Source: an uncultured Nitrosopumilales archaeon (GTDB taxonomy: Archaea; Thermoproteota; Nitrososphaeria; Nitrososphaerales; Gagatemarchaeaceae). Taken from it: 64,000 nucleotides of DNA. Positions 33,022 through 64,000 of the stretch are shown here, piece after piece. The notes under the pieces were generated by a model. That model searched no databases and was not told where the DNA came from. It worked only from the letters and a program-made list of their open reading frames with translations. How positions within the stretch are numbered: the first letter of the stretch is position 1; the number at the start of each line of letters is the position of its first letter. A program made the translations under genes and the position numbers. The stretch lies in assembly GCA_964413565.1 (NCBI GenBank), contig CAYPSJ010000020.1, positions 2,947 through 66,946 of the forward strand. The letters are read 5' to 3'.

Positions 33022-34605
33022 ATGGAGCTTCATGGCTCCACGGAGTCCGTCTGTCCTTTGGACGCAGAGAACGGGGACTGGAGGAGGATAGAGGCGAAAC
33101 TATGGATTGACCGCCCCACAAACGAAGTCTGGATGACCAAACACTGCGACCGCCACGGCGACTTCCAGGACCTCATCTCCACGGACGCCGACGAATACGT
33201 CAGGGCCGAGAGGTTCGCTCAGAAGGGGCCAGGCATCCAGAACCCGATTTCCTACACCAATGGCGAGTGTCCGACCCGATGCGGCCTTTGCTTCGAGCAC
33301 GAGTCGAAGACAGTCCTTGCGATAATCGACGTGACCAACCGATGCAACATGAGGTGTCCTGTCTGCTTCGCCAACGCAGGGACGGCCGGGTATGTGTACG
33401 AGCCCACAGTCGAGCAGATTGACAGGATGCTCGAGACCGCGACAAGGGTGAACTTCCCCAAGGGAATCCACGCCCTCCAGCTTTCAGGAGGCGAACCCAC
33501 CGTAAGGGAAGACCTCCCGGAAATCATCAGGTTGGTTAAGTGCCACGGCATCAACCACATCGAAGTGAACACAAACGGGCTTAAGGTAGGGGACCCGCAT
33601 ACAGGAACCGACTACCTGAAGACACTCATGGACGCAGGAGTCTCCACACTCTACCTTCAGTTTGACGGGCTCACCCCGGACCCCAGACTTGTCGCCAGAG
33701 TCCCCGGCACAGACGAAAAGGGTAGGTCCATGTCTGAGGCGGGCAGGAAGAAGCTCGCCGAATACTACACTGAACGCCAGCTGAATGTGGCCAACAGCGC
33801 GAGGAAGGCGGGGTTCGAGAGCATCGTCCTTGTGGTAACCCTTCAGCGCGGCTTGAACGACGGCCAGATGGGTGATATCTTGAGGTACGCCGGGGAGAAC
33901 TCTGACGTCGTGAGATGTGTCAACTTCCAGCCAGTTTCGATGGCCGGGAGGATGGACAGGAACAAGATACGTGAGGTCAGAATAACCAACGCAGACGTGG
34001 TGAACGGCGTCGAAAGACAGACCGGCGGCCAGATAAAGGCGAGCGACTTCTACCCGATCCCTGTAGAGGTGCCCCTGGCCAGCTATATCGAGCTCGTCAG
34101 AGGCAACAAGGACCACTACGACAGGTTCTCAACTCACTCGCAGTGCGGAAGAGCGACGCTGGTCTACGTCAGCAAGAAGGACGGCCAAGTGACCTTCGAC
34201 CCGATTACAAGGCACATGAACGCCGATGGGCTCTACTCTTCACTGGACAAGGCGGGCAGGAGCGGACGCTTCGTAGGTACCCTCCGTGGGTTGTCAGGCG
34301 TCCTCAGGCACACCGATTGGAGGATGAAGCGGGATATGATTGGTCCGATCCTCATGAGGGGGAACTACGAGGGAACAGGGGAGTTCATGAGGAAGGTCTT
34401 GATGATAGGAGACATGCACTTCATGGACACCTACAACTTCGACTTCCAGAGGGTCCACAAGTGCGCCATCCACTACCTGGTCCCTGACGAGAAGTTCGGC
34501 GCCAGAGTCATCCCATTCTGCACCATGAACAACTTTCACAGGCCCCAGGTCGAAAAGCAATACTCTGTACCGCTGATTTCAGCGCGTCCTGTGGGTCGCG
34601 TCTAG
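33022..34605 (+). CDS. radical SAM protein, candidate tetraether lipid synthase (Tes/GDGT-MAS; MJ0619-like) family
   Basis: TNRCNMRCPVCFA (CxxxCxxC) is preceded by CPTRCGLCFEH and by an N-terminal CP...KHCDRHG element, then LSGGEPT. Size (527 aa) and domain order match my recollection of the Tes family. Confidence 0.55.
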   Translation: MELHGSTESVCPLDAENGDWRRIEAKLWIDRPTNEVWMTKHCDRHGDFQDLISTDADEYVRAERFAQKGPGIQNPISYTNGECPTRCGLCFEHESKTVLAIIDVTNRCNMRCPVCFANAGTAGYVYEPTVEQIDRMLETATRVNFPKGIHALQLSGGEPTVREDLPEIIRLVKCHGINHIEVNTNGLKVGDPHTGTDYLKTLMDAGVSTLYLQFDGLTPDPRLVARVPGTDEKGRSMSEAGRKKLAEYYTERQLNVANSARKAGFESIVLVVTLQRGLNDGQMGDILRYAGENSDVVRCVNFQPVSMAGRMDRNKIREVRITNADVVNGVERQTGGQIKASDFYPIPVEVPLASYIELVRGNKDHYDRFSTHSQCGRATLVYVSKKDGQVTFDPITRHMNADGLYSSLDKAGRSGRFVGTLRGLSGVLRHTDWRMKRDMIGPILMRGNYEGTGEFMRKVLMIGDMHFMDTYNFDFQRVHKCAIHYLVPDEKFGARVIPFCTMNNFHRPQVEKQYSVPLISARPVGRV

Positions 34606-34630: not shown

Positions 34631-35914
34631 TCACGGGTACAGCTGCTCCCCTGTGTCGGCGTCCTCTATCCGTATGACTCCGTAGGGGCACGACTGGGCA
34701 GCAAGGAATAGCGCCTCAGGTTCCGTCCCCCTAGACTTCAAGACTTCCAGCGGGGCGGGTTCGACAGCAGACGACCTCTTTTTTGCCCAGTCGAGGCGGA
34801 ACACCTTCGGCGCCATGGCTACACAACTGGCGGAACCCATGCAGAGATCCGCATCAATCCCTACCCTTACGTTTCTTCCCTCAACAAGGCTCCCAGTCCA
34901 CCAGGAGTCAGCGGCTCTCCTGAATTCAGGAATTTCGACACGAGTGGGCAGAGCGGGCAACCAGCGGGCAGCGGCAACAAGTTCCTTGGCCGTCGGCGCT
35001 GATTCGCTCCTCCCTTGTATCGCTTCGTCAATCCAAGAGCCCATCGTAAGGCGGTCCTGCTCGACCCCCATCCTGACATCCGCAATCCCTTTCAGAGTAC
35101 CGACCCACTGACGGAACTGCTCAGCTTCTCCAAAGTTGCCCGAGAACGCGGAGAACAGGGAGTAGTCTGGGTCCGACCTTGTATCACTCCATTGGTATGC
35201 TTCCCCCAGCCTCTCCACGATGACGGGATCCACCTGCCCTTTCCACGACCTGTCCCCGTAATGGACCACGAGCATGTACGACAGCCCTGCCATCTTCTGG
35301 AAGTCCATCTTCACTTCGAGGTAGAAGGCGTGTCCCTCAACAAGCCTCTCCATCCTCCTGTTGAGAGTCTTGGCGCTTATGCGTGCTTCCCTCGCCAGTG
35401 TCCCCAGCTTCCTTCTCGCTCCGCGTCGCAACGACCTAAGAATCCGCCAGTCAGTCGCAGTCATGACGAGCCAGAAAGGAGGGAACTTCGATTCTAGGAC
35501 CATGGTCCTCTTTGCCCCCGCGAGTCCTTCGATTTCGGCGACTATCCCCTCGTGCGACATGCTGCTAGGATAGTCTGCAAAAACGAGCAGGGAATCGTTG
35601 TGGAAATAGTGGAGCGCCATAACCCCCTCCACGGCACTCAGCCTTCCAATCAGCCCACTCCTGTCTGCACCGGGAGGGAGCTCGACATAGACCCCGACGC
35701 AGTCCTTCTCCAGGAGGTGGGGGTTCGGGACGATGGTCCATCCCTGGATCACACCTAGCGTTTCCATCCTGTCGACCCTTCTCCTTACGGTCTCTTCATC
35801 GACCTGCAGTCTCTTGGCGATTCTTGCGAAAGATTTCCTGACGTTCCACCTCGAAGCAGGATGCTGGAGTTCCCTGAGAATCCCTGCGTCCAGCCGGTCA
35901 GGCCGGTACAACAT
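34631..35914 (-). CDS. tandem Lrp/AsnC-type transcriptional regulator fused to a C-terminal mono-cluster ferredoxin domain
   Basis: Two HTH_AsnC-like modules: LDAGILRELQ...IAKRLQVDEETVRRRVDRMETLGVIQGW and TDWRILRSLRR...LAREARISAKTLNRRMERLVEG, each followed by a RAM-like segment. The C-terminal 90 aa read WWTG...DADLCMGSASCVAMAP...AAQSCPYGVIRIED (CxxSxxC...CP). Confidence 0.7.
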   Translation of the reverse strand: MLYRPDRLDAGILRELQHPASRWNVRKSFARIAKRLQVDEETVRRRVDRMETLGVIQGWTIVPNPHLLEKDCVGVYVELPPGADRSGLIGRLSAVEGVMALHYFHNDSLLVFADYPSSMSHEGIVAEIEGLAGAKRTMVLESKFPPFWLVMTATDWRILRSLRRGARRKLGTLAREARISAKTLNRRMERLVEGHAFYLEVKMDFQKMAGLSYMLVVHYGDRSWKGQVDPVIVERLGEAYQWSDTRSDPDYSLFSAFSGNFGEAEQFRQWVGTLKGIADVRMGVEQDRLTMGSWIDEAIQGRSESAPTAKELVAAARWLPALPTRVEIPEFRRAADSWWTGSLVEGRNVRVGIDADLCMGSASCVAMAPKVFRLDWAKKRSSAVEPAPLEVLKSRGTEPEALFLAAQSCPYGVIRIEDADTGEQLYP

Positions 35915-36154
35915 GATATAGGATTTTCACTAATCTATTAAGCGTTGTCAAGAATTTTGAGAATGTCCGATTTCCGGCGTAGCTGTAGGGCATCTGTTAA
36001 CCGATTCGAAGGTGGAATGGAGTGGCATGGCGAAAAGACTGACGACCAGAGCCGCTCTCCCGGCGCCACTTCTTTCTTCAAACGCTGTGAGAGCATCATT
36101 CTCGAGGCTGACGGAAGACTCCGTCAGGAGGTGAATCGTGCAAATTTGAAGACT

Positions 36155-36571
36155 ATGAGCCTGATTCTGTCAGTTGTCTTGCTGTTCTCTGCGGCGGTGG
36201 GAGGCTACATTCTAGCCACAGATTCGTATCTGTGGTCTGTGGCCACGACGCATGCCTACGGCCTCTTGGCATTCACGGTCATTGACGTGGCCTTGGTTGC
36301 CGGCCTGTGGAGAAAGCCGAGGGTGGCGATCGTAGCCGCAACCCTGCTCGGTCTGGTCCAGCTAGGGGCGATGAGCGGCGACATCTTCTTCGGCACAATG
36401 ACTTTCTCCTCTGACGTCACCACTGCCGCCGCCTTCTCGAAGTACCTCCTCGGCGATGTGGCCTTCGTGACCCTCCTCGGAATACAGGCTGTCCTCATCA
36501 TCGTCGGGATCGCGGCCTTTGTGTCGTGGAGAAGGGCTCCGGCCGTGATCAGAGAGGTCGCAGGGACATGA
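36155..36571 (+). CDS. integral membrane protein (4 TM), function unknown
   Basis: Start taken at ATG 36155 (MSLILSVVLLF); the ORF track begins at 35945. Its stop overlaps the cupredoxin ATG (ATGA). Confidence 0.5.
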   Translation: MSLILSVVLLFSAAVGGYILATDSYLWSVATTHAYGLLAFTVIDVALVAGLWRKPRVAIVAATLLGLVQLGAMSGDIFFGTMTFSSDVTTAAAFSKYLLGDVAFVTLLGIQAVLIIVGIAAFVSWRRAPAVIREVAGT

Positions 36572-37083
36572 GAGCTCCTGCAAAGAGGCATGGGCTAGGC
36601 ACAGGAGTCATTTTTGTCGTGGCGATGGCGTTCGTCGTCCTCCTTGCCGGCATTGCCTACTACGCGTCCACCGGCAGCGCACCCCCAACCTCGTCGCACC
36701 AGACGATGTCTCAAGCTTCGGCGGCTCCCACGACAACGACGTCTCCGGCCTCACCGACAACCTTGAGCGCCTCCGCACAACCAGAAATGGTGCACGTGAG
36801 CATGCCTTACGGCGTAGGTACCAACCAATCATTCAATTTCCAACCCAGCACAATCGACCTGGTCATAGGCATCAACAACACAGTGATGTGGACCAACAAA
36901 GACAGTGCACCCCACGTTGTCAGTGTAATGTCCGTTCCGAGCGGTGCGGCCAAGTTCGACTCCGGGAACATGGTGCCGGGCGCAACCTTCACGTACACCT
37001 TCACAGTTCCTGGCATCTACAAGTACGATTGCACGTACCACTACTGGATGCAAGGAACCATCGAAGTGAGTCAGGCAGCATAG
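36568..37083 (+). CDS. membrane-anchored type-1 (blue) copper protein, plastocyanin/halocyanin-like cupredoxin
   Basis: Start at ATG 36568 (MRAPAKRHG). It has a TM helix, a Ser/Thr/Pro linker, and Cu ligands in DSAPHVV (His) and YDCTYHYWM (Cys-x2-His-x2-Met). Confidence 0.75.
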   Translation: MRAPAKRHGLGTGVIFVVAMAFVVLLAGIAYYASTGSAPPTSSHQTMSQASAAPTTTTSPASPTTLSASAQPEMVHVSMPYGVGTNQSFNFQPSTIDLVIGINNTVMWTNKDSAPHVVSVMSVPSGAAKFDSGNMVPGATFTYTFTVPGIYKYDCTYHYWMQGTIEVSQAA

Positions 37084-37117
37084 GCTGTCTGACTCCAATT
37101 TGTTGAGCTGATCAACA

Positions 37118-37492
37118 GTGGGCGACCTCATTACGAATCTCGCCTGGATTGCCTTCGGCGTTGGCACACTTGTTGGATTCACAATGATACTTCGATGGCG
37201 TCGAGACCTGAGTCAGAGCGGTTGGTGGACAGGGATTATCGTCGAAGGAACAAAGCTCGATGTAGGTGTCGACCATGATCTCTGTATGGGCGCCTCAAGC
37301 TGCGTTGAGTTAGCTCCAGATGTATTCCGCCTGGACTGGAGCAAGAAGAAATCGATCTTCGATCCAGCTCCACTTGAGGCGTTGAATGGCTCGAGTGCCG
37401 ACCCAGAGGAGGTCTTCAAGGCCGCGCAGTCCTGTCCCTACCGAGCGATATTCCTCCGAGACGCCGTGACCGGCGAGCACGTCTTCCCGTAG
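37118..37492 (+). CDS. membrane-anchored mono-cluster ferredoxin (probable [3Fe-4S] type)
   Basis: N-terminal TM (LAWIAFGVGTLVGFTMIL), then WWTG...DHDLCMGASSCVELAP...AAQSCPYRAIFLRD (CxxAxxC...CP). It is a close paralog of the C-terminal domain of 34631..35914. Confidence 0.7.
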   Translation: MGDLITNLAWIAFGVGTLVGFTMILRWRRDLSQSGWWTGIIVEGTKLDVGVDHDLCMGASSCVELAPDVFRLDWSKKKSIFDPAPLEALNGSSADPEEVFKAAQSCPYRAIFLRDAVTGEHVFP

Positions 37493-37679
37493 CCTGACAG
37501 TGGACGTGCGCCGCCTCGGGGGCGTACAGATTGACAGTCTCGAATGAGGCGCGCGACCTTTCACGCAGCGGCCGGGTCCCCCACGATGACGGGAGACTCC
37601 GTCAGGATTCGGGACAAACGATTAGTAGTAACTTGGTCCTCAACCTTTCGTGGGGGCTTCGCAGTTTCCCCCGTTTGGG

Positions 37680-38774
37680 ATGAGTTCAGGTCAATCCGAA
37701 GACGCGGATGTAGCCATCATTGGGGCGGGGATCGTCGGCCTCGCAATCGCATACCGTCTATCGAACCTTAACAAGCGTGTGCTTGTGATTGAAAAGGAAA
37801 CTGAACCCGGCAAGGGAATCACCTCCGGGCAGGCAAACGTCATCCACGTTGTCCAGCTCCCCTTTGGCTCTCTGAAGAGCAAGCTCGCCAGGAAGGGGAA
37901 CACCATGTATGACGACCTCTGCCGGGAGCTCGGGGTCAGACTGAACCGTGTCCCGTCACTCCTCGTGGTCAGGGGATGGCTCAGGCTACCAATCCTCTTC
38001 TTCGTCTACCTCTATCTTAGGTTCGCGCTTCGGGGGCAGTTCAAAGTCCAGTTGATGAGGGGCAGGAGCCTGCGAATGATCGAGCCGCTCCTGGCGGACG
38101 GAATTTCAGGAGGAATCGTCGTCAACGGGTACGGGACCGTCGACGCCCAATCATTGGTGCTCAGGCTGAAGGAAGCGGCCGAGAAGCGGGGAGTCGTCTT
38201 CTGGTTCGGCTGCGAACTCACCTCCTGCAGCCGGGAGGGAGAGAGCACCCTTCTGAAGACAACATGCGGGGACGTGAAGGCGATGTTTGTGGTGAACGCT
38301 GCAGGACTCTATTCAGATGACGTGGCTAGGATGCTTGGCAGGGACCTTGGGAGGCTCGAGCCCGGACTTGGCGTGATGGCAGTCTACTCTGGCCTTGACC
38401 TGAAAGCGATAGTCGCGCCGCTCCCTCTGAGCATCGGGTCGAGGACCAAGGGAGGCGCAATAATCCCCGCAACTGACGGCACGACAATCGTCGGTCCGAC
38501 ATTGAGGGTGGCCAGGACTAGGGATGAACACGAGTATACAGAAGAAGACCTGACGCTTCTCAGGTCCAAGTTCCGTCCCCTATTGAAAGAAGAGGGGGAG
38601 CTCGTCAGGGTCTACACGGGGGTACGGCCATTGTCCCCAACACGGGACTTTATCATAGATCTCGACGGCACCAAGAAGGCGGTCAACCTAGTGGGCATCG
38701 AGTCTCCCGGCCTCACAGCTGCCCCGGCGATTGCCGAATTGGTAGTCGGGATGATAACAGGGGTCAGCGCATGA
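37680..38774 (+). CDS. FAD-dependent oxidoreductase (glycerol-3-phosphate dehydrogenase / L-2-hydroxyglutarate oxidase-like, DAO family)
   Basis: DVAIIGAGIVGLAIAYRLS dinucleotide-binding motif and IESPGLTAAPAIA near the C-terminus. Start is ATG 37680 or GTG 37650. Confidence 0.7.
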   Translation: MSSGQSEDADVAIIGAGIVGLAIAYRLSNLNKRVLVIEKETEPGKGITSGQANVIHVVQLPFGSLKSKLARKGNTMYDDLCRELGVRLNRVPSLLVVRGWLRLPILFFVYLYLRFALRGQFKVQLMRGRSLRMIEPLLADGISGGIVVNGYGTVDAQSLVLRLKEAAEKRGVVFWFGCELTSCSREGESTLLKTTCGDVKAMFVVNAAGLYSDDVARMLGRDLGRLEPGLGVMAVYSGLDLKAIVAPLPLSIGSRTKGGAIIPATDGTTIVGPTLRVARTRDEHEYTEEDLTLLRSKFRPLLKEEGELVRVYTGVRPLSPTRDFIIDLDGTKKAVNLVGIESPGLTAAPAIAELVVGMITGVSA

Positions 38775-40159
38775 GCGAAGTGCTCTACGCCTGCGTCGAT
38801 GTGGGCACCACCCGAATCAAGCTCAGCATCTTCGATGAGGACATGCAGAAGAAGCACGGCGAAGCCCTTACTGTTCCAGTGAACCCCAGCGGCCTCCAGG
38901 ACGCGGAAGAGCTCTTCCGGGCTGTGAAGCACCTCGCGGACAAGGGTAAGGAGATGGGTGCCAGATCTATGGGTCTGGCGACCTACAGGGGGTCTACCGT
39001 TGCCTGGGACAGGGAGGGGAAGCCACTCACTCCCATCGTGACCTGGACGGACAGAGGGGGAGAGTCAACCTACCGGCGTCTTCCGGCGTACATGAAGCTG
39101 GTCGGAAAGATACCGCCCTTCGACATGATAATCTCCCCCTACTCTCCAGTCCTGAGGTTCCTGAGGCTCGGGGAGCTGAACAAATCGCTCGACGAGAAGA
39201 GCATGCTCTGGACCATCGACTCCTACCTCGCCTACAGGCTCACGGGGAAGTTCGTCTCCGATGTCACCAACGCGTGCCTCACCGGATTCGTTCACCCCAA
39301 GACGATAAAGGAAATCGGGCCGGTGAAGCCCCTCTTCAAACTGAAAATGGAGATCCCTGAACTGGTGGAGAACGCGGAGAACATCGGGTCATACAGCGGG
39401 TTGGAGGTCAACGCTCTCATCGCAGACCAGCAGGCCGCGAGCGTGGGGGAGTGGGCCGTCGAACCGGGGATGGGCAAGGTAACGAACTCGACAGGAACCT
39501 TCGTCGACATACCGACGGACGGCTACGCTCGCAGAGGGGACTTGATACCCCTGGTGCTTCTCAAACACAAGAGGAAGGTATGGTACGGGGTCGAAGGGTA
39601 TCTTCCCACCACCGGGAAGGCGGTCGACCTGACGCTGAAAATGGGACTGCTGAAGGACTATTCCGACCTAGAGGTCGAGCCGGCCGGCGAGGTCATCTTC
39701 ATCCCCGCGCTGAGCGGCCTCTATACGCCCCACGCCATGGGCGCGAAGGGGCTCATAGCCGGTCTCACTCTGTGGTCCGACAAAGCCGCAGTTGTATCGG
39801 GGCTCCTGAAGTCGGTGGCCTTCCATGTCAGATTCGTCTTGGAGCAATCTGGAGAAAGCCTGAAGACCCTCAGGGCTGACGGAGGCCTCTCCAAGTCCGA
39901 CGCTCTGTTGAAGATGATTTCTGCGGCAACGGGGACCACGCTGGAGAGGGATACGGACCTGGAAGCGACGTCCAGGGGAGTCGCGATGCTCCAGCTGGCC
40001 GCCACTGGAAAATCCTCCCTAGAGGAACTTGCGAAAGCCAAAAGGGAAAGGGAGGCTTTTAGTCAGAAGGGAAACGCGGCACTAGAGGAAGAGTACCAGA
40101 AATGGAAGAAAACGACAGGATTGCTGAAGAGCTCGAAGGGGTCTTACCTGGCCGAGTGA
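38771..40159 (+). CDS. FGGY-family carbohydrate kinase (glycerol kinase-like)
   Basis: VDVGTTRIKLSIFD, RGSTVAWDREGKPLTPIVTWTDRG, ADQQAA, RADGGLSKSD. ATGA overlap with the upstream gene. Confidence 0.75.
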   Translation: MSEVLYACVDVGTTRIKLSIFDEDMQKKHGEALTVPVNPSGLQDAEELFRAVKHLADKGKEMGARSMGLATYRGSTVAWDREGKPLTPIVTWTDRGGESTYRRLPAYMKLVGKIPPFDMIISPYSPVLRFLRLGELNKSLDEKSMLWTIDSYLAYRLTGKFVSDVTNACLTGFVHPKTIKEIGPVKPLFKLKMEIPELVENAENIGSYSGLEVNALIADQQAASVGEWAVEPGMGKVTNSTGTFVDIPTDGYARRGDLIPLVLLKHKRKVWYGVEGYLPTTGKAVDLTLKMGLLKDYSDLEVEPAGEVIFIPALSGLYTPHAMGAKGLIAGLTLWSDKAAVVSGLLKSVAFHVRFVLEQSGESLKTLRADGGLSKSDALLKMISAATGTTLERDTDLEATSRGVAMLQLAATGKSSLEELAKAKREREAFSQKGNAALEEEYQKWKKTTGLLKSSKGSYLAE

Positions 40160-41454
40160 CCAGAGACGTAGGGCCCTACCTGAAGGACTGGTGGCCCCTC
40201 ACCTGGTTCAGCGAAGAGCCCCTCGGTAGCGCCATAGCCGCGGTGAAGCCAACGAACGTCGATCAGGTCACGGCCTTGGTCAACTTCGCGTCAGCCCACG
40301 GCGTACCTCTCTATGTCCATGGTGGAGGGAGCTCTGTGACCGGGGCCTCGATCCCCACCAAGGGGATAGTGGTCGACATGCAAGGAATGAACCAGGTGCT
40401 CGACCTTGACGAGACGAACAGGACGGTGACTGTCCAGGCCGGGGCAAAGCTCAAGCAGGTGGAGGCGAAGCTTGGAGAGAAGGGACTGTCGCTCTTCCAG
40501 TTCCCCCAATCGCTAGAGCTTGTCACGGTCGGAGGCTACATCTCGACCCTAGGGACGGGGCAGTACAGCACTCTCTACGGCGGAATCGAAGACTCGGTCC
40601 TCAGATTGGAGGTCGTCCTCCCTACCGGGGAGGTCGTCTGGACACGCAAGCGTGGGGCGCCTAGGTCTTCCGTGGGACCCGACCTGAGCAGGCTCTTCCT
40701 CGGTGCGGAAGGAACCCTCGGCATCATCACAGCAGCTGAGCTCAAGGTCCACAGGCTCCCGAACCACGAGTGGAGGGCTGCCTACACCCTCCCCAACTTC
40801 GAATCAGGAGTCGCAATAGCCAAGCTCCTCATGGAGCTGGATGTGAAGCCCGCAGTTTGCAGGCTCTACAACGAAGTCGAGACGGCCTTCCAGTTCCAGG
40901 GGGACAAGCCTATCATGATGCTGATCTACCATGCAAGGTCATCGCAGATTCTCGAAGAAATCAAGGAGGAGGTATCCGGCCAGCTGCAAGGGACCGCCAC
41001 CGTCGCCGACCCGGCCCTGGTCGGCAAATGGCTAGAGAGGAGATTCAACTTCAGGGACGACATCGAGACCGTGAAGAAGATGGGGTACACCCTGGAGACG
41101 ATAGAAGTCGCAGCGAAGTGGAGCAGAATTGTGGAGATGTACGCGGACGTCATGATCAGCCTGTCCAATGTCAAGGGTGTCGCAGGCGTAGGGGCACACC
41201 TCTCGCACATCTACGATCAGGGTGCTTGTCTCTATCTTACCATCCTTTTCGAGCCCAACACTGACGTATACTGGAGCATATGGGAAACGATGGCCAAGAT
41301 AACGAGCACTCACGATGCAACAATCTCCCACCACCATGGCGTTGGCATCCTCAAGCGGGCCTATGCTCGCGATGAGGTCCCCATGGGGCTCCTCAAGAAG
41401 CTCAAACAGGCTTTGGACCCGAAGGGGACCATAAGCCCCGACAGATTGCTATAG
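40102..41454 (+). CDS. FAD-linked oxidase (GlcD / D-lactate dehydrogenase / alkyl-DHAP synthase-like)
   Basis: PTNVDQVTALVNFA...VHGGGSSVTG FAD_binding_4 motif and C-terminal HHHGVG. The ATG at 40102 gives a 58-nt overlap with the kinase; the alternative GTG at 40156 gives a GTGA overlap. Confidence 0.75.
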   Translation: MEENDRIAEELEGVLPGRVTRDVGPYLKDWWPLTWFSEEPLGSAIAAVKPTNVDQVTALVNFASAHGVPLYVHGGGSSVTGASIPTKGIVVDMQGMNQVLDLDETNRTVTVQAGAKLKQVEAKLGEKGLSLFQFPQSLELVTVGGYISTLGTGQYSTLYGGIEDSVLRLEVVLPTGEVVWTRKRGAPRSSVGPDLSRLFLGAEGTLGIITAAELKVHRLPNHEWRAAYTLPNFESGVAIAKLLMELDVKPAVCRLYNEVETAFQFQGDKPIMMLIYHARSSQILEEIKEEVSGQLQGTATVADPALVGKWLERRFNFRDDIETVKKMGYTLETIEVAAKWSRIVEMYADVMISLSNVKGVAGVGAHLSHIYDQGACLYLTILFEPNTDVYWSIWETMAKITSTHDATISHHHGVGILKRAYARDEVPMGLLKKLKQALDPKGTISPDRLL

Positions 41455-48797: not shown

Positions 48798-49914
<1,117 letters not shown>

Positions 49915-49922
<8 letters not shown>

Positions 49923-50745
49923 GCAAGCCCTGCACGCCTTCATGCGAGGGACAGTCCGCGAGGTCACAAGAGAGACTCCCGACACCTTCACCCTGCTCTT
50001 CGATTTGGGGGAAAGACGAACCCCCGCTGATTTCATGCCGGGTCAGTTCAACATGCTCTACGTCTTCGGGGTGGGAGAGGTCCCTATCTCTGTCGCCTCC
50101 TCCCGCGGAGAGAAATTGTTGATGCACACCATCAGATCAGTGGGGACGGTCACCAACCTCTTGGCAAGGCTCAGCGTTGGGGAGAGTGTAGGTGTCAGGG
50201 GACCCTTCGGCAGAGGATGGCCCGTCACCGAGGCAGAGGGGAAACAGTTGCTGATTATCGCAGGTGGCCTGGGGCTTCCACCGCTGCGTCCCGTGATAGA
50301 AGAGGCGGTTGCGAAGCATGGCCGCTTCGCCGAGATGAAGGTAATGTACGGGGCGAGGACCCCATCGGACCTCATCTATACCCACGAGTATCCGAGGTGG
50401 CAGGCGGCGAACGGGTGCGACCTTCTCCTCACGGTCGACAGGGGGGACGGGGATTGGAGGGGCAACGTAGGCGTCGTTACAACTCTCTTCCCAAAGGCGG
50501 GGATTGACCCCGGGCGTGCCACCGCCTTCATCTGCGGCCCCGAGCTCATGCTCAAGTTCTCGATTATGGAGCTCGTGAAAATGGGGGTACCGGCCGAGAG
50601 GATTTTCATCTCTCTGGAGCGGAACATGAGCTGCGCTTCAGGCACCTGCGGCCACTGCCAGCTGGGGCCATTTTTCATCTGCAGGGACGGTCCCGTCTTC
50701 AGCTATCCGAAGATTAGGGATTTCTTCCCAAGGGAGGGGGTCTGA
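49915..50745 (+). CDS. hydG: sulfhydrogenase gamma subunit, FAD/NAD(P)-binding with C-terminal [2Fe-2S]
   Basis: [18 protein letters not shown] and [11 protein letters not shown] (ferredoxin-NADP reductase-like), then [26 protein letters not shown] 49915 is preceded by GGAGG at 49901; the alternative start is ATG 49942. Confidence 0.7.
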
Positions 50746-51512
50746 TGTCCAAGCCAAGACTGGGCGTGTTCAAGTTCTCATCCTGCGACGGATGCCAGCT
50801 CTCCATGCTCGACGCCGAGGACGAACTTCTCCAACTCCTTGACAGGGTCGAGCTGGCGGACTTCTTGGAGGCCAGCAGCGCATCGGCGGGGGCCCCCTAT
50901 GATGTCGCTCTGGTCGAGGGGTCCGTCTCTACCGAGGAGGAGGTCGAGAGAATAATCCGCATCAGGAAGGAATCCAAGATGCTCGTGGCCCTCGGCGCCT
51001 GCGCGACTTCGGGTGGCCTGCAGGCCCTTAGGAACTGGAGCAGGCTTGGCCTTTTCGAGTCGGCAGTCTACCCAGAGCCGAAGGTCGCCAGGGCCTTGGA
51101 GAAGGCGCTCCCCGTAAGCGACTTCGTAGCAGTAGACTTCGAGCTGAGGGGGTGCCCCGTAAGCAAGTCGCAGCTCCTGCAGTTTTTCGCTTCAATCCTG
51201 CGGGGCGCGAAACCGAGGCTCCCTACCAGCGCTGTCTGCTTCGAGTGCAAGAGGGCCGGGAACCCCTGCCTCGTAGTAGCCGGCGGGACACCCTGCCTCG
51301 GCCCGGTCACCGCTTCTGGGTGCGGCGCACTCTGCCCTTCCCGTGGCAGAGGATGCTACGGATGCTTCGGACCTTCGGACGACGCGAACTTGGATTCCTA
51401 CGCTTCGTGGCTGGCCGCCCACAAAGTCGACCGCTCGACCATAGGGCTCCTCCTCAGGGGCGCCAACTCACAGTCGCCCGAGTTTAGGAGGTGGATAGAG
51501 AAGAATGGCTAG
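50745..51512 (+). CDS. hydD: [NiFe]-hydrogenase small (delta) subunit
   Basis: VFKFSSCDGCQLS and GACATSGG, plus distal cluster cysteines. TGATG overlap with hydG. Confidence 0.75.
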   Translation: MSKPRLGVFKFSSCDGCQLSMLDAEDELLQLLDRVELADFLEASSASAGAPYDVALVEGSVSTEEEVERIIRIRKESKMLVALGACATSGGLQALRNWSRLGLFESAVYPEPKVARALEKALPVSDFVAVDFELRGCPVSKSQLLQFFASILRGAKPRLPTSAVCFECKRAGNPCLVVAGGTPCLGPVTASGCGALCPSRGRGCYGCFGPSDDANLDSYASWLAAHKVDRSTIGLLLRGANSQSPEFRRWIEKNG

Positions 51513-52797
51513 GCGAGTCGTGGTGGACACGGGTCCCATGGCTAGGGTGGAGGGGGAAGGGTCGCTTTCCATCGTAGAGACGGATACTGGGGTGCCTGAG
51601 GTCAAGCTGAATATATTCGAGCCTCCACGGTTCTTCGAGGCTCTCCTCAGGGGCAGACGGGCGGAAGAGGTCCCCGACATCGTCGCGAGAATTTGCGGCA
51701 TCTGCCCAGTCGCCTACCAGATCAGCTCACTGAATGCCTTCGAGGATCTCTTCGGAGCAGAGGTCGACGAGCAGGTAAGGAAGCTCAGAAGAATTCTGTA
51801 CTACGGGGAGTGGATCGAAAGCCACACGCTACACATCTTCATGCTCGCCGCGCCCGATTTCGCGGGAGTCCCCGACGCAGTTGCGTTGGCCAAGAGCGAC
51901 CCCGCGTTAGTGAGAGAGGCACTCACCCTCAAGAAATTGGGCAACAGTCTCATGTCGGCCGTCGGGGGGAGGGAGATCCATCCAGTGTCGCTCAAGATAG
52001 GAGGGATCTACAGAGCGCCTTCGAAGGAGGCCCTAGCATCCCTCTTGCCGGAGCTGGACAGGCTAAGGGGCGCCGTCCAGAAGATGGTCGACTTCATCTC
52101 ATCCCTCGAAAGGCCGTCTCTGGAAAGGGAGTCCACTCTGGTCTGTCTCCGCGACCCGGCACGCTATGCCATCGATCGAGGGGAAATAGTTTCCAACCGA
52201 GGGCTTCGGCTGCCGCCCTCGGCCTTCGAAGAGAACTTCGAGGAATACCAGGTCGAGTACTCTAACGCGCTGCATTCGCGCACCAGGGGTGGGGGTTCCT
52301 ACATGGTAGGACCTCTAGCGAGGTTCAGCCTGAACTACGAACAGCTCAATCCTGCCGCCAGGGCTTTGGCCAAGGAGATTGGGATGAAGCCCCCGCTGAA
52401 GGACCCGTTCCAGAGCATACTCGTCAGGGCCCTCGAGATAGTGCACGCGCTGGAGGAGACGGCGAGAGAGGTGAAGGAGTACGAAGAGCCTGTCCGCCCC
52501 AGTGTCCCATACAAGGCGAAGGCTGGTACCTGCTACGGTGTCAGCGAAGCTCCCAGGGGCATACTCTACCACAGCTACACGGTCAACGGCAGGGGCCAGA
52601 TTGAAAGGGCCAAAATCGTTCCACCCACCGCCCAGAACCAGGCACGGATGGAGGACGACGTCAGGCTTCTGGCCCCCCGCATATTGAAATCAGGTGCCGG
52701 CGAAGCCAGGAGGCTCAGCGAGATGGCAATTCGCAACTACGACCCCTGTATATCCTGTGCGACACATTTCCTGAGACTGGACATCAGAAGAGCCTAG
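51505..52797 (+). CDS. hydA: [NiFe]-hydrogenase large (alpha) subunit
   Basis: N-terminal RICGICPVAY and C-terminal DPCISCATH Ni-Fe ligand motifs. 8-nt overlap with hydD. Confidence 0.8.
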   Translation: MARRVVVDTGPMARVEGEGSLSIVETDTGVPEVKLNIFEPPRFFEALLRGRRAEEVPDIVARICGICPVAYQISSLNAFEDLFGAEVDEQVRKLRRILYYGEWIESHTLHIFMLAAPDFAGVPDAVALAKSDPALVREALTLKKLGNSLMSAVGGREIHPVSLKIGGIYRAPSKEALASLLPELDRLRGAVQKMVDFISSLERPSLERESTLVCLRDPARYAIDRGEIVSNRGLRLPPSAFEENFEEYQVEYSNALHSRTRGGGSYMVGPLARFSLNYEQLNPAARALAKEIGMKPPLKDPFQSILVRALEIVHALEETAREVKEYEEPVRPSVPYKAKAGTCYGVSEAPRGILYHSYTVNGRGQIERAKIVPPTAQNQARMEDDVRLLAPRILKSGAGEARRLSEMAIRNYDPCISCATHFLRLDIRRA

Positions 52798-52805
52798 CAG
52801 GGCTC

Positions 52806-53345
52806 TCATTTCCCCTTTCCCGCGTACTCTTTCACCTCCTCCTTGACTTCTTCTAGCACGTGCGGAAGGGCTCCTGCGACCTCAGCCGACAGGCCGTTTC
52901 CGGCGGTGCAATCTGCCGGCTCAACGCCGACTACGACAGTCGCAGGTAGGCGCATCCCGGTTTTTCTTGCAAGAGCGAGGATGTCGTGGAAATTCTGCTC
53001 GTGAGACAGGGGAGCGTGAAGAACTGCAGACCGGCGCGCGCCCGCAATGAACCTCACCACACTACCAGGCGGTCTACCTGATTTCACAGCATCCACAATG
53101 ACCAGCTTCGACGCTCCCTTCGCAGAATCGAGGACCGAGATATCCACGGTCTGACGCTCAAGGACTAGTACCCCCGACCCCAGATTGAGCTTCCTCAGAG
53201 CCTTCGCCACTTCGATGCCGAAACCGTCATCTCCCATGAGGGGGTTTCCCACGCCGATCACGACGCATTCTCTTCTCTGGGCTTCCCCTACTCTTCCGCC
53301 CTGCTTACGAAGGCGGCTGTTTTCATTGGCAGCTTCCGCGGACAT
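52806..53345 (-). CDS. hydrogenase maturation endopeptidase (HycI/HoxW family)
   Basis: VVIGVGNPLMGDDGFGIEV and VIVDAV. It converges on the hydrogenase operon. Confidence 0.75.
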   Translation of the reverse strand: MSAEAANENSRLRKQGGRVGEAQRRECVVIGVGNPLMGDDGFGIEVAKALRKLNLGSGVLVLERQTVDISVLDSAKGASKLVIVDAVKSGRPPGSVVRFIAGARRSAVLHAPLSHEQNFHDILALARKTGMRLPATVVVGVEPADCTAGNGLSAEVAGALPHVLEEVKEEVKEYAGKGK

Positions 53346-62693: not shown

Positions 62694-63251
62694 ATGATGA
62701 CAGAAGTGCGCCTTCACGGGAGGGGCGGCCAGGGCGTAGTGTCCGCCGCCCAGCTGATAGCGGACGCCGCTGTCCTCGAAGGAAAGTACGTCCAAGCTTT
62801 CCCCGAGTTCGGCGCTGAAAGGTCCGGTGCCCCCATTGCCGCCTACGCGCGGCTGAGCGATGGTCCCATCGAGATACACTCCTTCATCCGCAACCCCGAC
62901 GTGGTGATGGTCGTGGACAGGTCCATGGCCTTTTTCAAGAGCACGACCCAGGGCCTCTCCAGGGACGGCTGGTTCATCTGCAACTACGACGGCTCCCCTG
63001 AAGAGCTGCGCTCTAAGCTCGGACTCGAGCCGTCGGTGAAGGTCATCACCCTCGACGCCACAGGAATAGCGATGAAGTGTCTGGGGAAGGACTATCCCAA
63101 CACGCCGATGCTTGGTGCACTCCTTAGGGCAACGGGAATCGTCGGCACCGAGTCCCTCGAGAAGGTCCTCGGTGGCCGGTTCAAGGGGAAGGTGCTGGAA
63201 GGAAATCAGGAGGCCCTCAAGCTGGGATACCAGGGAGGGAGCGCCGCATGA
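62694..63251 (+). CDS. 2-oxoacid:ferredoxin oxidoreductase gamma subunit (pyruvate/2-ketoisovalerate type)
   Basis: [21 protein letters not shown]...[12 protein letters not shown]. Confidence 0.8.
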
Positions 63252-63514
63252 GCTGGAAGCAGCTCGAAGAGGGTGGTGTCGTAAAGGGAGGCACTTCTGC
63301 ATCCTACATCGTCTCAGGATGGAGGGTCAAGAGGCCGGTCATCAACGAAGCGAAATGCACCAACTGTTTGATCTGCTGGGTCTATTGCCCCGAACCTGCC
63401 ATCATCAGGCACGAAGGGGCCAAGGTTACCATCGACTACGACCACTGCAAAGGGTGCGGCATCTGCGAGACGGAGTGTCCGCCCAAGGCGATATCAATGG
63501 TGAGGGAGCCGTGA
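63248..63514 (+). CDS. 2-oxoacid:ferredoxin oxidoreductase delta subunit (2x[4Fe-4S])
   Basis: [12 protein letters not shown] and [16 protein letters not shown] overlap with the gamma subunit. Confidence 0.8.
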
Positions 63515-64000
63515 CGCTCACCCAGACCCTGCGCGTTGCCGCGCTCCAGGGGGACGAAGCGGTGGCAGAAGCGGTGCGCCAGTGTGACGTCGACGTCGTG
63601 GCGGCATACCCCATCACCCCTCAGACAATCATAGTGGAGAAGCTTGCCGAGTACGTCGCCGACGGCAGGTTCAGGGGAGAGTTCGTCGCTGTCGAGTCTG
63701 AGCATAGTGCTCTTTCGGCCTGCCTTGGAGCGGCGGCCACGGGTGCACGCGTCTTCACAGCGACTTCCAGTCAGGGCCTGGCCTACATGCACGAGATGCT
63801 CTACAACGTCTCCGGCATGAGGCTTCCCATAGTGATGGCGGTGGCAAACAGGGCCCTCAGTGCTCCTCTGGTCCTCAACGCCGACCATGGAGACATGATG
63901 GGTTCCAGAGACTCGGGGTGGATCCAGTTCTACGCCGAGAACGTGGAAGAGATCTACGACAGGACGATTCAGCTATTCAAGCTGTCCGAGGACCCGAGGG
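63511..64000 (+). CDS. 2-oxoacid:ferredoxin oxidoreductase alpha subunit, N-terminal part (runs off the right edge)
   Basis: GTG 63511 overlaps the delta stop (GTGA). [11 protein letters not shown]...AAYPITPQT...[10 protein letters not shown]...[11 protein letters not shown]. Not in the ORF track because no stop is reached. Confidence 0.75.

Follow-up and report, generated by a model that had tools for sequence, protein, structure and literature searches.

A tandem Lrp/AsnC-type regulator fused to a three-cysteine ferredoxin module in uncultured Nitrososphaeria: a candidate iron-sulphur sensor of transcription

The 64,000-nucleotide stretch of DNA analysed here (hereafter, the window) belongs to contig CAYPSJ010000020.1 of assembly GCA_964413565.1, from an uncultured Nitrosopumilales archaeon, a soil-type member of the Nitrososphaeria. 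At 34631..35914, on the minus strand, it contains an ATG-initiated open reading frame (ORF) of 427 amino acids, whose frame is uninterrupted in the ORF listing. The product combines two successive Lrp/AsnC-type units, each with an AsnC-type helix-turn-helix (HTH) and a RAM-like domain, with a linker and a C-terminal ferredoxin module of 90 residues. This architecture, proposed in a first-pass annotation made from the letters alone, was borne out by Pfam, by the structural model and by profile comparison. The parts of the gene are the following:

34631..35914, minus strand: whole gene, tandem Lrp/AsnC plus ferredoxin module (stop codon 34631-34633)
35762..35899, minus strand: first HTH, AsnC-type winged HTH, residues 6-51 (PF13404 stretch; model helices 7-17, 25-35 and 40-52)
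35495..35749, minus strand: first RAM-like domain, residues 56-140, beta-alpha-beta-beta-alpha-beta (profile alignment and model secondary structure)
35336..35464, minus strand: second HTH, residues 151-193 (PF13412 stretch and second PF13404 stretch)
35045..35326, minus strand: second RAM-like domain, residues 197-290 (model; the Foldseek alignment to NirDL spans both modules)
34904..35038, minus strand: C-terminal helices (residues 293-317; model helices 293-305 and 309-317) and Pro-rich flexible linker (residues 318-337)
34634..34903, minus strand: WWTG plus mono-cluster ferredoxin module, residues 338-427, 90 amino acids (Fer4_15 and Fer4_13)
34841-34843, 34823-34825 and 34688-34690, minus strand: codons of the putative cluster ligands C358, C364 and C409, with S361 as the variable position

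In the Pfam scan, PF13404 (HTH_AsnC-type) scored 54.6 bits against a cut-off of 27, on residues 6-51 and approximately 151-193, and PF13412 (HTH_24) scored 47.6 bits on residues 151-193; the AsnC-type winged HTH that is expected of Lrp/AsnC regulators is thus present. The family profile aligned residues 5-141 over the full length of LrpA (1i1g, E 2.5e-11), PH0140, AsnC and ST1022, and the AlphaFold model, with a mean predicted local distance difference test (pLDDT) score of 75, displays twice a three-helix HTH followed by a beta-alpha-beta-beta-alpha-beta arrangement. The second of these RAM-like domains comprises strands 197-203, 211-219, 240-244, 251-258 and 277-290, and helices 222-239 and 261-272. 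Residues D155, W156, T183, R186 and R187 of the second HTH are invariant, even when a relative devoid of the ferredoxin module (P0016) is included. The body of the protein, as the part preceding the linker is called here, looks like an Lrp/AsnC-type regulator, for which DNA binding is predicted. The two units in one chain would form an intramolecular pseudo-dimer, the dimer being the usual DNA-binding unit of the family.

The same tandem layout is also found in an enzyme. The top Foldseek matches of the full model were two entries of the siroheme decarboxylase NirDL (4ch7 and 4czc; E about 1e-11 over approximately 320-330 columns), with both modules covered, raising the possibility that the protein is not a regulator but a siroheme-decarboxylase-like enzyme (an AhbA/AhbB fusion or a NirDL-type protein) to which a ferredoxin has been added. 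This best structural match is nevertheless loose (TM-score 0.55, root-mean-square deviation (RMSD) 7.6-9.8 Å, 15% identity), and NirDL is, to our knowledge, the only solved tandem chain of the Lrp-like fold in the PDB. The arrangement of two Lrp-like units as one pseudo-dimer, typical of these decarboxylases, is therefore found at the structural level, but with a TM-score of only 0.55. Fusions of AhbA and AhbB are common in archaea (PMC11237513), and a weak Pfam match to NirdL-like_HTH was obtained (17.3 bits, under its cut-off of 27). At the sequence level, by contrast, no relationship to these enzymes was detected: in the profile search of PDB sequences real regulators matched with E values down to 2.5e-11, whereas no AhbA/B or NirDL chain appeared at E<=1; PF17805 was not matched in the Pfam scan; and the NCBIfam AhbB model gave E 0.071 and 12.8 bits against a cut-off of 125. 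Siroheme decarboxylases are defined by an HxYxR motif, which is located in the beta-sheet domain and includes an essential Arg (PMC4145669). None of the 15 fusion proteins and none of the 121 members of the ferredoxin-less parent family has this motif; the equivalent strand reads L-H-Y-F-H-N. Moreover, 32 of the 38 positions conserved across fusion proteins and parent family lie in the two HTH regions (23 of the 38 in residues 6-67) rather than in the beta-sheet domain. The enzymes show the reverse pattern, and the body is therefore filed with the Lrp/AsnC regulators. No heme-pathway genes are found nearby. The siroheme decarboxylase identity prompted by the NirDL match was rejected on the motif, Pfam and profile evidence, and an enzymatic reading of the fusion is very improbable.

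The C-terminal module scored above the curated Pfam cut-offs for Fer4_15 (27.5 bits against 22.4, on residues 351-416) and Fer4_13 (25.0 bits against 24.5). Its cysteine pattern in the window protein is C358-M-G-S361-A-S-C364 ... C409-P410, in register with the ligands of Pyrococcus furiosus ferredoxin (C11=C358, D14=S361, C17=C364, C56=C409). The 15 aligned fusion proteins show no variation at C358, C364, C409-P410, W339, G341 and many other positions of the module, and the pattern C-x2-[S/T/A]-x2-C...C-P is kept in all 14 distinct fused modules across the loci. Conservation of these cysteines, on which the first-pass annotation had made its proposal depend, is therefore complete. Its further observation that Ser replaces the missing Cys holds for the window protein (S361), but Ser is not invariant, the site being Ser in ten, Thr in two and Ala in two of the distinct fused modules, and always Ala in the free-standing ferredoxin paralog encoded next to the regulator. 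No part of the fusion protein is better conserved than the ferredoxin module: identities for module and body are 91 versus 61% in L006, 83 versus 61% in L017, 64 versus 48% in L001 and 61 versus 44% in L018.

A model of the module alone (pLDDT 76.7) had as its top structural match the Mycobacterium tuberculosis ferredoxin 8amp (TM-score 0.78, RMSD 2.4 Å, probability 1.00), followed by the P. furiosus [Fe3S4] ferredoxin 1siz (TM-score 0.66); beyond these two, no structural match of this model had a probability above 0.7. The ferredoxin fold, family models above their curated cut-offs and the CXX?XXC(X)nCP motif were thus all found. In Mycobacterium marinum, Fdx9, with a CXXSXXC(X)nCP motif, carries a low-potential [3Fe-4S] cluster, as determined by native mass spectrometry and electron paramagnetic resonance (PMC6237146). 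By analogy, the fused module most likely binds a plain [3Fe-4S] cluster through C358, C364 and C409. The occurrence of Ala at the variable position means that a Ser-ligated [4Fe-4S] cluster is not required, so that, of the two cluster types considered in the first-pass annotation ([3Fe-4S] or a labile [4Fe-4S]), a guess that agrees with the Fdx9 data and with the 8amp and 1siz matches, the plain [3Fe-4S] form is now the likelier. Based on ligand and module conservation, the modelled fold and the Fdx9 precedent, the module looks functional. It shares Pfam families, ligand register and fold with the three-cysteine ferredoxins (8amp, 1siz/1sj1, M. marinum Fdx9 and Rhodopseudomonas palustris HaPuxC, 4id8), but differs from them in an N-terminal WWTG beta-hairpin, in its tether to a DNA-binding protein or, in the free paralog, to a membrane helix, and in having no P450 or other known partner nearby. 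In the genome scan, the nearest relatives of the module outside Nitrososphaeria were actinobacterial three-cysteine ferredoxins (L011-L014, from Actinomycetes, Parafrankia and Acidimicrobiia; 30-63% identity over partial alignments), which hints at a shared origin of the module with P450-type ferredoxins.

The same fusion was found in 14 protein clusters (clustering at 90% identity) from JGI, ENA, NCBI and Logan, with identities to the query from 90% down to 40%, and nine further full-length fusion loci were recovered in a metagenome scan. It lies on approximately 20 independent contigs from these four data sources, from Nitrososphaeria metagenome-assembled genomes (MAGs) and metagenomes, with junction and linker conserved, and the MAGs that yielded related loci bear the names Nitrososphaerales, Nitrosopumilales or Thaumarchaeota. 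The concern, already voiced in the first-pass annotation, that a missed stop or a frameshift had joined a regulator gene to a neighbouring ferredoxin gene is refuted by this recurrence across independent assemblies at identities down to 40%, with the frame uninterrupted both in the window and on these contigs. Nothing in favour of such an artefact was found, and its probability is negligible. In one metagenome locus (L027, 2833-3788) the regulator body is split into two overlapping frames, which indicates a frameshift, due either to a sequencing error or to a pseudogene; this split is located inside the Lrp body, off the fusion junction.

The gene is divergent from an operon whose genes in the window are:

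36146..36571, plus strand: membrane protein of about 138-141 amino acids with four transmembrane helices (4-TM), first operon gene (start TTG 36146 or ATG 36155)
36568..37083, plus strand: membrane-anchored amicyanin/plastocyanin-like cupredoxin (PF00127, 33.4 bits; likely ATG 36568)
37118..37492, plus strand: free-standing ferredoxin paralog of 124 amino acids (Fer4_15, 38.3 bits)

Both the cupredoxin and the free-standing paralog had been placed in this operon by the first-pass annotation, to which the 4-TM gene has to be added as the first of the operon and the membrane anchoring of the paralog as a refinement. The 4-TM protein matched no Pfam or NCBIfam family, and its gene is next to the regulator in ten full loci and two partial ones. 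The likely start of the cupredoxin overlaps the 4-TM stop codon (ATGA), the ortholog in L004 starting with MKAPAERRG; its best NCBIfam match is amicyanin (E 1.2e-11, below the model cut-off). The free paralog consists of an N-terminal transmembrane helix followed by RWRR(D/E) (RWRRD in the window), WWTG and CMGASSC...CP, and shares 58% identity with the fused module over 90 amino acids, WWTG included. From the positive-inside rule, its ferredoxin domain is probably cytoplasmic. A hairpin with a 12-bp stem, GAGTCAGGCAGC-ATAG-GCTGTCTGACTC, at 37068-37095 on the plus strand, spans the cupredoxin stop codon just before the start of the paralog and could be an intra-operon terminator, an attenuator or a processing site.

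Synteny was compared in the 12 informative loci, that is, the non-redundant loci with enough upstream sequence. An operon divergent from the regulator is found in all 12, and in 11 of them it includes a free ferredoxin paralog. The layouts observed, in which the ABC pair is a generic ABC-2 exporter (ATP-binding cassette type), are:

4-TM, cupredoxin, ferredoxin: seven lineages
4-TM, ferredoxin: two loci (L022 and L027)
4-TM, ferredoxin, ABC, ABC2: L017
ABC, ABC2, ferredoxin: L005
ABC, ABC2, without ferredoxin: the P0011 lineage (loci L001-L003 and L007)

To trace the origin of the fusion, an exhaustive profile search of 1.84 billion representatives was used, which gave 195 proteins at E<1e-30. 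Among those listed, only three representatives contain the whole fusion, and about 190 are mostly tandem-Lrp relatives without ferredoxin: most of the other matches are proteins of 300-320 amino acids that align to approximately positions 5-303 of the query, and a few are stand-alone WWTG-ferredoxins of 116-159 amino acids. The ferredoxin-less parent proteins have the same two HTHs, end at about residue 303-305, and are named only automatically (e.g., "AsnC family transcriptional regulator" for P0017 and P0021). When the bodies were compared in a neighbour-joining tree, all fusion proteins grouped as a single clade inside this family, with the ferredoxin-less P0017 as sister, a topology that indicates one domain-accretion event. 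The fusion clade is small and confined to uncultured Nitrososphaeria-type archaea. Fused modules are 61-92% identical to one another but 52-60% identical to the free paralog of the same genome, and, being closer to each other than to their own free paralogs, they point to a duplication that predates the divergence of the clade. When the module alone was used as the query, all matches were short proteins, either free-standing or fragmentary, and the WWTG-ferredoxin module was not found in any other fusion. The split form, a ferredoxin-less regulator next to a free ferredoxin, was not found at the three loci inspected for it: L009 and L010 have the free ferredoxin with no tandem-Lrp gene beside it, and L019 has the ferredoxin-less sister regulator with no ferredoxin beside it. 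At L019 (227-703, minus strand), P0017 is divergent from a 158-amino-acid membrane protein with a "...RGEKWAW..." motif, and a membrane protein similar by eye is encoded in L010 (2463-2879, plus strand), upstream of a 221-amino-acid variant of the transmembrane ferredoxin.

Several body positions, such as P116, E129, F147, Q206, F257 and S258, are invariant in the fusion clade and rare in the parent family, which suggests co-adaptation of the body to the added module. In the parent family, positions 147 and 258 are often occupied by Cys; a Cys-based sensor later replaced by the ferredoxin was considered and dropped, since the cysteines are scattered and follow no consistent pattern. One ferredoxin-less member (P0088, 737 amino acids, from a JGI metagenome) has a C-terminal DUF5122 beta-propeller ("delta-60 repeat"), so the tandem-Lrp scaffold has also accepted other C-terminal modules.

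The roughly 190 ferredoxin-less relatives must sense something without a ferredoxin, RAM-like folds are kept in both modules, and the fused module is of a bona fide electron-carrier type. These features would fit a regulator whose tandem RAM domains sense a small molecule, the ferredoxin being a non-sensory electron carrier fused for co-expression or stoichiometry with the operon products. Such an arrangement is improbable: an electron carrier tethered to a DNA-bound, low-copy regulator would be a poor electron supply, the free paralog already serves the carrier role at the same locus, and the body positions invariant only in the fusion clade suggest co-adaptation to the module.

The spacer between the regulator and the operon contains two features of note:

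35915..36010, no strand assigned: conserved non-coding block, the regulator-proximal 95 bp approximately (ortholog alignments)
36108..36134, plus strand: perfect 8-bp inverted repeat CTGACGGA-N4-TCCGTCAG, abutting the Shine-Dalgarno (SD)-like GGAGGTGA

Orthologs whose proteins are as little as 67% identical still show 75-100% identity in the proximal block, as compared with 44-46% for the distal spacer in L006. The block contains a TATA-like element, GCTTAATA, at 35936-35943 (consensus GCTTAAWA), about 25 nt before the regulator ATG, a distance which suggests that the regulator mRNA is probably leaderless. Two weakly similar 17-nt elements occur at 35920-35936 and 35950-35966, and in L006 and L017 a 17-nt direct repeat with 30-bp spacing flanks the TATA element. 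Two other conserved stretches, which are longer (35960-35977 and 35986-36003), occur nowhere else in the window. A coding explanation of the conservation, as an N-terminal extension of the 4-TM ORF starting at 35945, was rejected because the frame is closed in L006 and L017, and substitutions by codon position show no third-position excess (10/5/8, 12/15/16 and 25/30/27). As for structured RNA in the operon leader, Rfam gave only one match at chance level (E 0.15), and the leader folds no better than its shuffles (z 0.03). The conservation of 35915-36010 is a phylogenetic footprint of a candidate promoter/operator region. Towards the operon, the SD-like GGAGGTGA lies 11 nt before the TTG start at 36146, and the inverted repeat next to it is conserved in L015 and partly in L004; this repeat could be an operator palindrome or a translation-masking hairpin.

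Considering these data, the protein is, with reasonable probability, a local one-component regulator that uses a [3Fe-4S]-type cluster as its sensor. According to this proposal, a scaffold in which two Lrp/AsnC units form a pseudo-dimer would have acquired, in one Nitrososphaeria clade, a soluble copy of the neighbouring membrane-anchored three-cysteine ferredoxin, joined to the Lrp body by a Pro-rich tether of about 20 residues that is modelled with low confidence (pLDDT below 50 over 318-343). The module would carry its cluster through C358, C364 and C409, and the protein would bind the conserved block of about 95 bp in the divergent spacer, thereby controlling from it its own, probably leaderless, promoter and the adjacent operon. 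The target operon would comprise the 4-TM, cupredoxin and membrane ferredoxin genes here, and an ABC-2 exporter plus the membrane ferredoxin in relatives. The cluster would provide the input through its redox state, through its 3Fe or 4Fe occupancy, or through its presence or loss (holo versus apo); a change of this kind would probably alter the packing of the module against the RAM domains and, in turn, oligomerisation or DNA affinity.

Several observations weigh against this proposal. Stable ferredoxins of the [3Fe-4S] type normally serve in electron transfer and not as labile sensors. The RAM halves gave no PF01037 match at E<=0.1 in the Pfam scan, and in the full-length model the ferredoxin module has a pLDDT of about 50 and no confident docking. 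The candidate operator is weak, as the 17-nt repeat is only about 59% self-similar in the window and its degenerate pattern finds a single copy there, so that the repeat is not established as an operator. In addition, the divergent operon of the P0011 lineage lacks the ferredoxin paralog, and an attempt to name the signal from the target genes failed, as the ABC-2 exporter is generic and the membrane proteins match no family.

The main rival of direct cluster sensing is that the fused module acts chiefly as a protein-protein surface copying the membrane-anchored ferredoxin. The regulator would then dock to the same redox partner or to the membrane ferredoxin itself, being held at or released from the membrane in an anti-sigma-like manner, and the cluster would be structural or would report only the electron flux of the partner. 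The paralogy of fused and free modules (58% identity, with even the juxtamembrane WWTG shared) agrees with such docking, as do the persistence of the two genes together through three operon layouts, the long disordered tether and the fact that the module is the most conserved part of the protein; furthermore, three-cysteine ferredoxins of the Fdx9 class normally dock to partners such as P450s (PMC6237146; 6mcw). On the other hand, the free ferredoxin occurs in other Nitrososphaeria (L009 and L010) without any such regulator, the P0011 lineage has the regulator without an adjacent free ferredoxin, and no partner was identified. At the sequence level both mechanisms look alike. We regard docking or sequestration as a minority possibility that deserves consideration, with the passenger carrier, the enzyme and the assembly artefact progressively less likely.

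A more speculative variant, for which the chances are likewise low, is that the fused module serves as a soluble decoy for the membrane ferredoxin under the control of the regulator, which would translate the occupancy of, or the electron flux through, a shared respiratory partner into transcription. In this variant the module would exchange electrons with, or dock to, the partner of the membrane paralog. If true, the decoy would be a feedback sensor arisen from the duplication of a regulated electron carrier and its fusion to its own regulator, and the protein would also be the first iron-sulphur one-component regulator in the Lrp/AsnC family and the first found described in Nitrososphaeria.

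Lrp/AsnC proteins are among the most abundant archaeal regulator families, and those that have been characterised respond to amino acids or other small metabolites, which are sensed by the RAM domain. The protein described here resembles P. furiosus LrpA (1i1g), Escherichia coli AsnC (2cg4) and Sulfolobus tokodaii ST1022/Grp in having a winged HTH followed by a beta-alpha-beta-beta-alpha-beta domain that looks RAM-like, and its gene has the layout usual for autoregulated local Lrp proteins, facing away from a candidate target operon and preceded by a conserved region. Unlike them, the protein has two units per chain instead of forming a homodimer, its RAM-like halves are too divergent for PF01037, it carries an additional C-terminal iron-sulphur (Fe-S) module, and its effector is probably not an amino acid. 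The ferredoxin-less tandem-Lrp family of Nitrososphaeria (about 300-320 amino acids) is homologous over residues 5-303 approximately and has the same two-HTH layout, but ends at about 305, without the ferredoxin module. Like NirDL, its best structural match over the whole chain, the protein carries two Lrp-like units on a single polypeptide, but it has neither HxYxR nor PF17805 and shows no sequence-level relationship to NirDL or AhbA-AhbB. A review of the Lrp family describes no Lrp-ferredoxin design, although some Thermoplasma Lrp proteins are predicted to respond to oxygen (PMC2995911).

The proposed logic, in which the state of an Fe-S cluster sets transcription, is that of FNR, IscR/NsrR (Rrf2), SoxR, WhiB-like proteins, SufR and OrpR, the last being a recent case of a new scaffold recruited for Fe-S sensing (PMC8359166). 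No Pfam or NCBIfam match at E<=0.1 was obtained to the FNR/CRP, Rrf2, MerR-SoxR, WhiB or SufR families. In contrast to FNR, IscR, SoxR, WhiB, SufR and OrpR, where the cluster is held in loops of the regulator or in a PAS domain, the sensor would here be an autonomous ferredoxin domain attached through a flexible linker, in an archaeal host and with a cluster that is probably [3Fe-4S]. A closer formal parallel is the CYP51-ferredoxin fusion of Methylococcus capsulatus (6mcw), in which a three-cysteine module is also C-terminal and which aligns through the CxxHxxC region. That module feeds electrons to the fused enzyme, whereas the partner here is of DNA-binding type, without redox chemistry of its own.

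Parts and logic are thus familiar, but the combination of Lrp and ferredoxin is new with respect to the literature found. In line with the first-pass remark that the architecture was not known as characterised, no paper describing such a regulator was found, and the names of homologues were all assigned automatically (e.g., "DNA-binding Lrp family transcriptional regulator/ferredoxin"). If the sensing proposal is true, the sensory range of the Lrp/AsnC family would extend to redox or iron status; the protein is a candidate Fe-S transcription sensor in archaea, for which no regulator of the kind was found described. The pairing of a regulator with a membrane paralog of its own sensor, encoded beside an ABC-2 exporter or a blue-copper protein, suggests that non-model Nitrososphaeria have an unstudied module for electron transfer at the membrane or for metal handling, and the regulator gives a way into the control of this module. 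The system is small: one protein, one spacer of about 240 bp and three cysteines.

Regarding the surroundings of the locus, the gene for the tetraether lipid synthase Tes (radical S-adenosylmethionine family; 33022-34605, plus strand; 498 bits in NCBIfam against a cut-off of 450) runs towards the regulator gene, so that the two stop codons are only 25 bp apart; this convergent arrangement is also found in L015. This neighbour, along with the relatives in MAGs named Nitrososphaerales, Nitrosopumilales or Thaumarchaeota, identifies the host as an archaeon. Directly 3' of the ferredoxin paralog, a glycerol-type catabolic run (37650-41454, plus strand; conserved in L015) encodes a DAO-family FAD (flavin adenine dinucleotide) oxidoreductase, an FGGY kinase and an FAD-linked oxidase. 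A third, weak ferredoxin-like match in the window, at 63398-63559, turned out to be the delta subunit of a 2-oxoacid:ferredoxin oxidoreductase, unrelated to the regulator system; from translations and CxxCxxCxxxCP motifs, gamma and delta (dicluster ferredoxin) subunits of this enzyme were assigned to 62694-63514 on the plus strand. No amo genes were seen in the ORF survey of the window, which was not a dedicated amo search. The region 48798-53345 contains a group-3b-like [NiFe]-hydrogenase cluster, with Fer4_22, NAD-binding/DHODB Fe-S, Oxidored_q6 small and NiFeSe_Hases large subunits and a divergent HycI maturation protease. Together with genes for peptide ABC transport, aminotransferases and glycerol metabolism, this hydrogenase suggests a heterotrophic, probably non-ammonia-oxidising member of the Nitrososphaeria.

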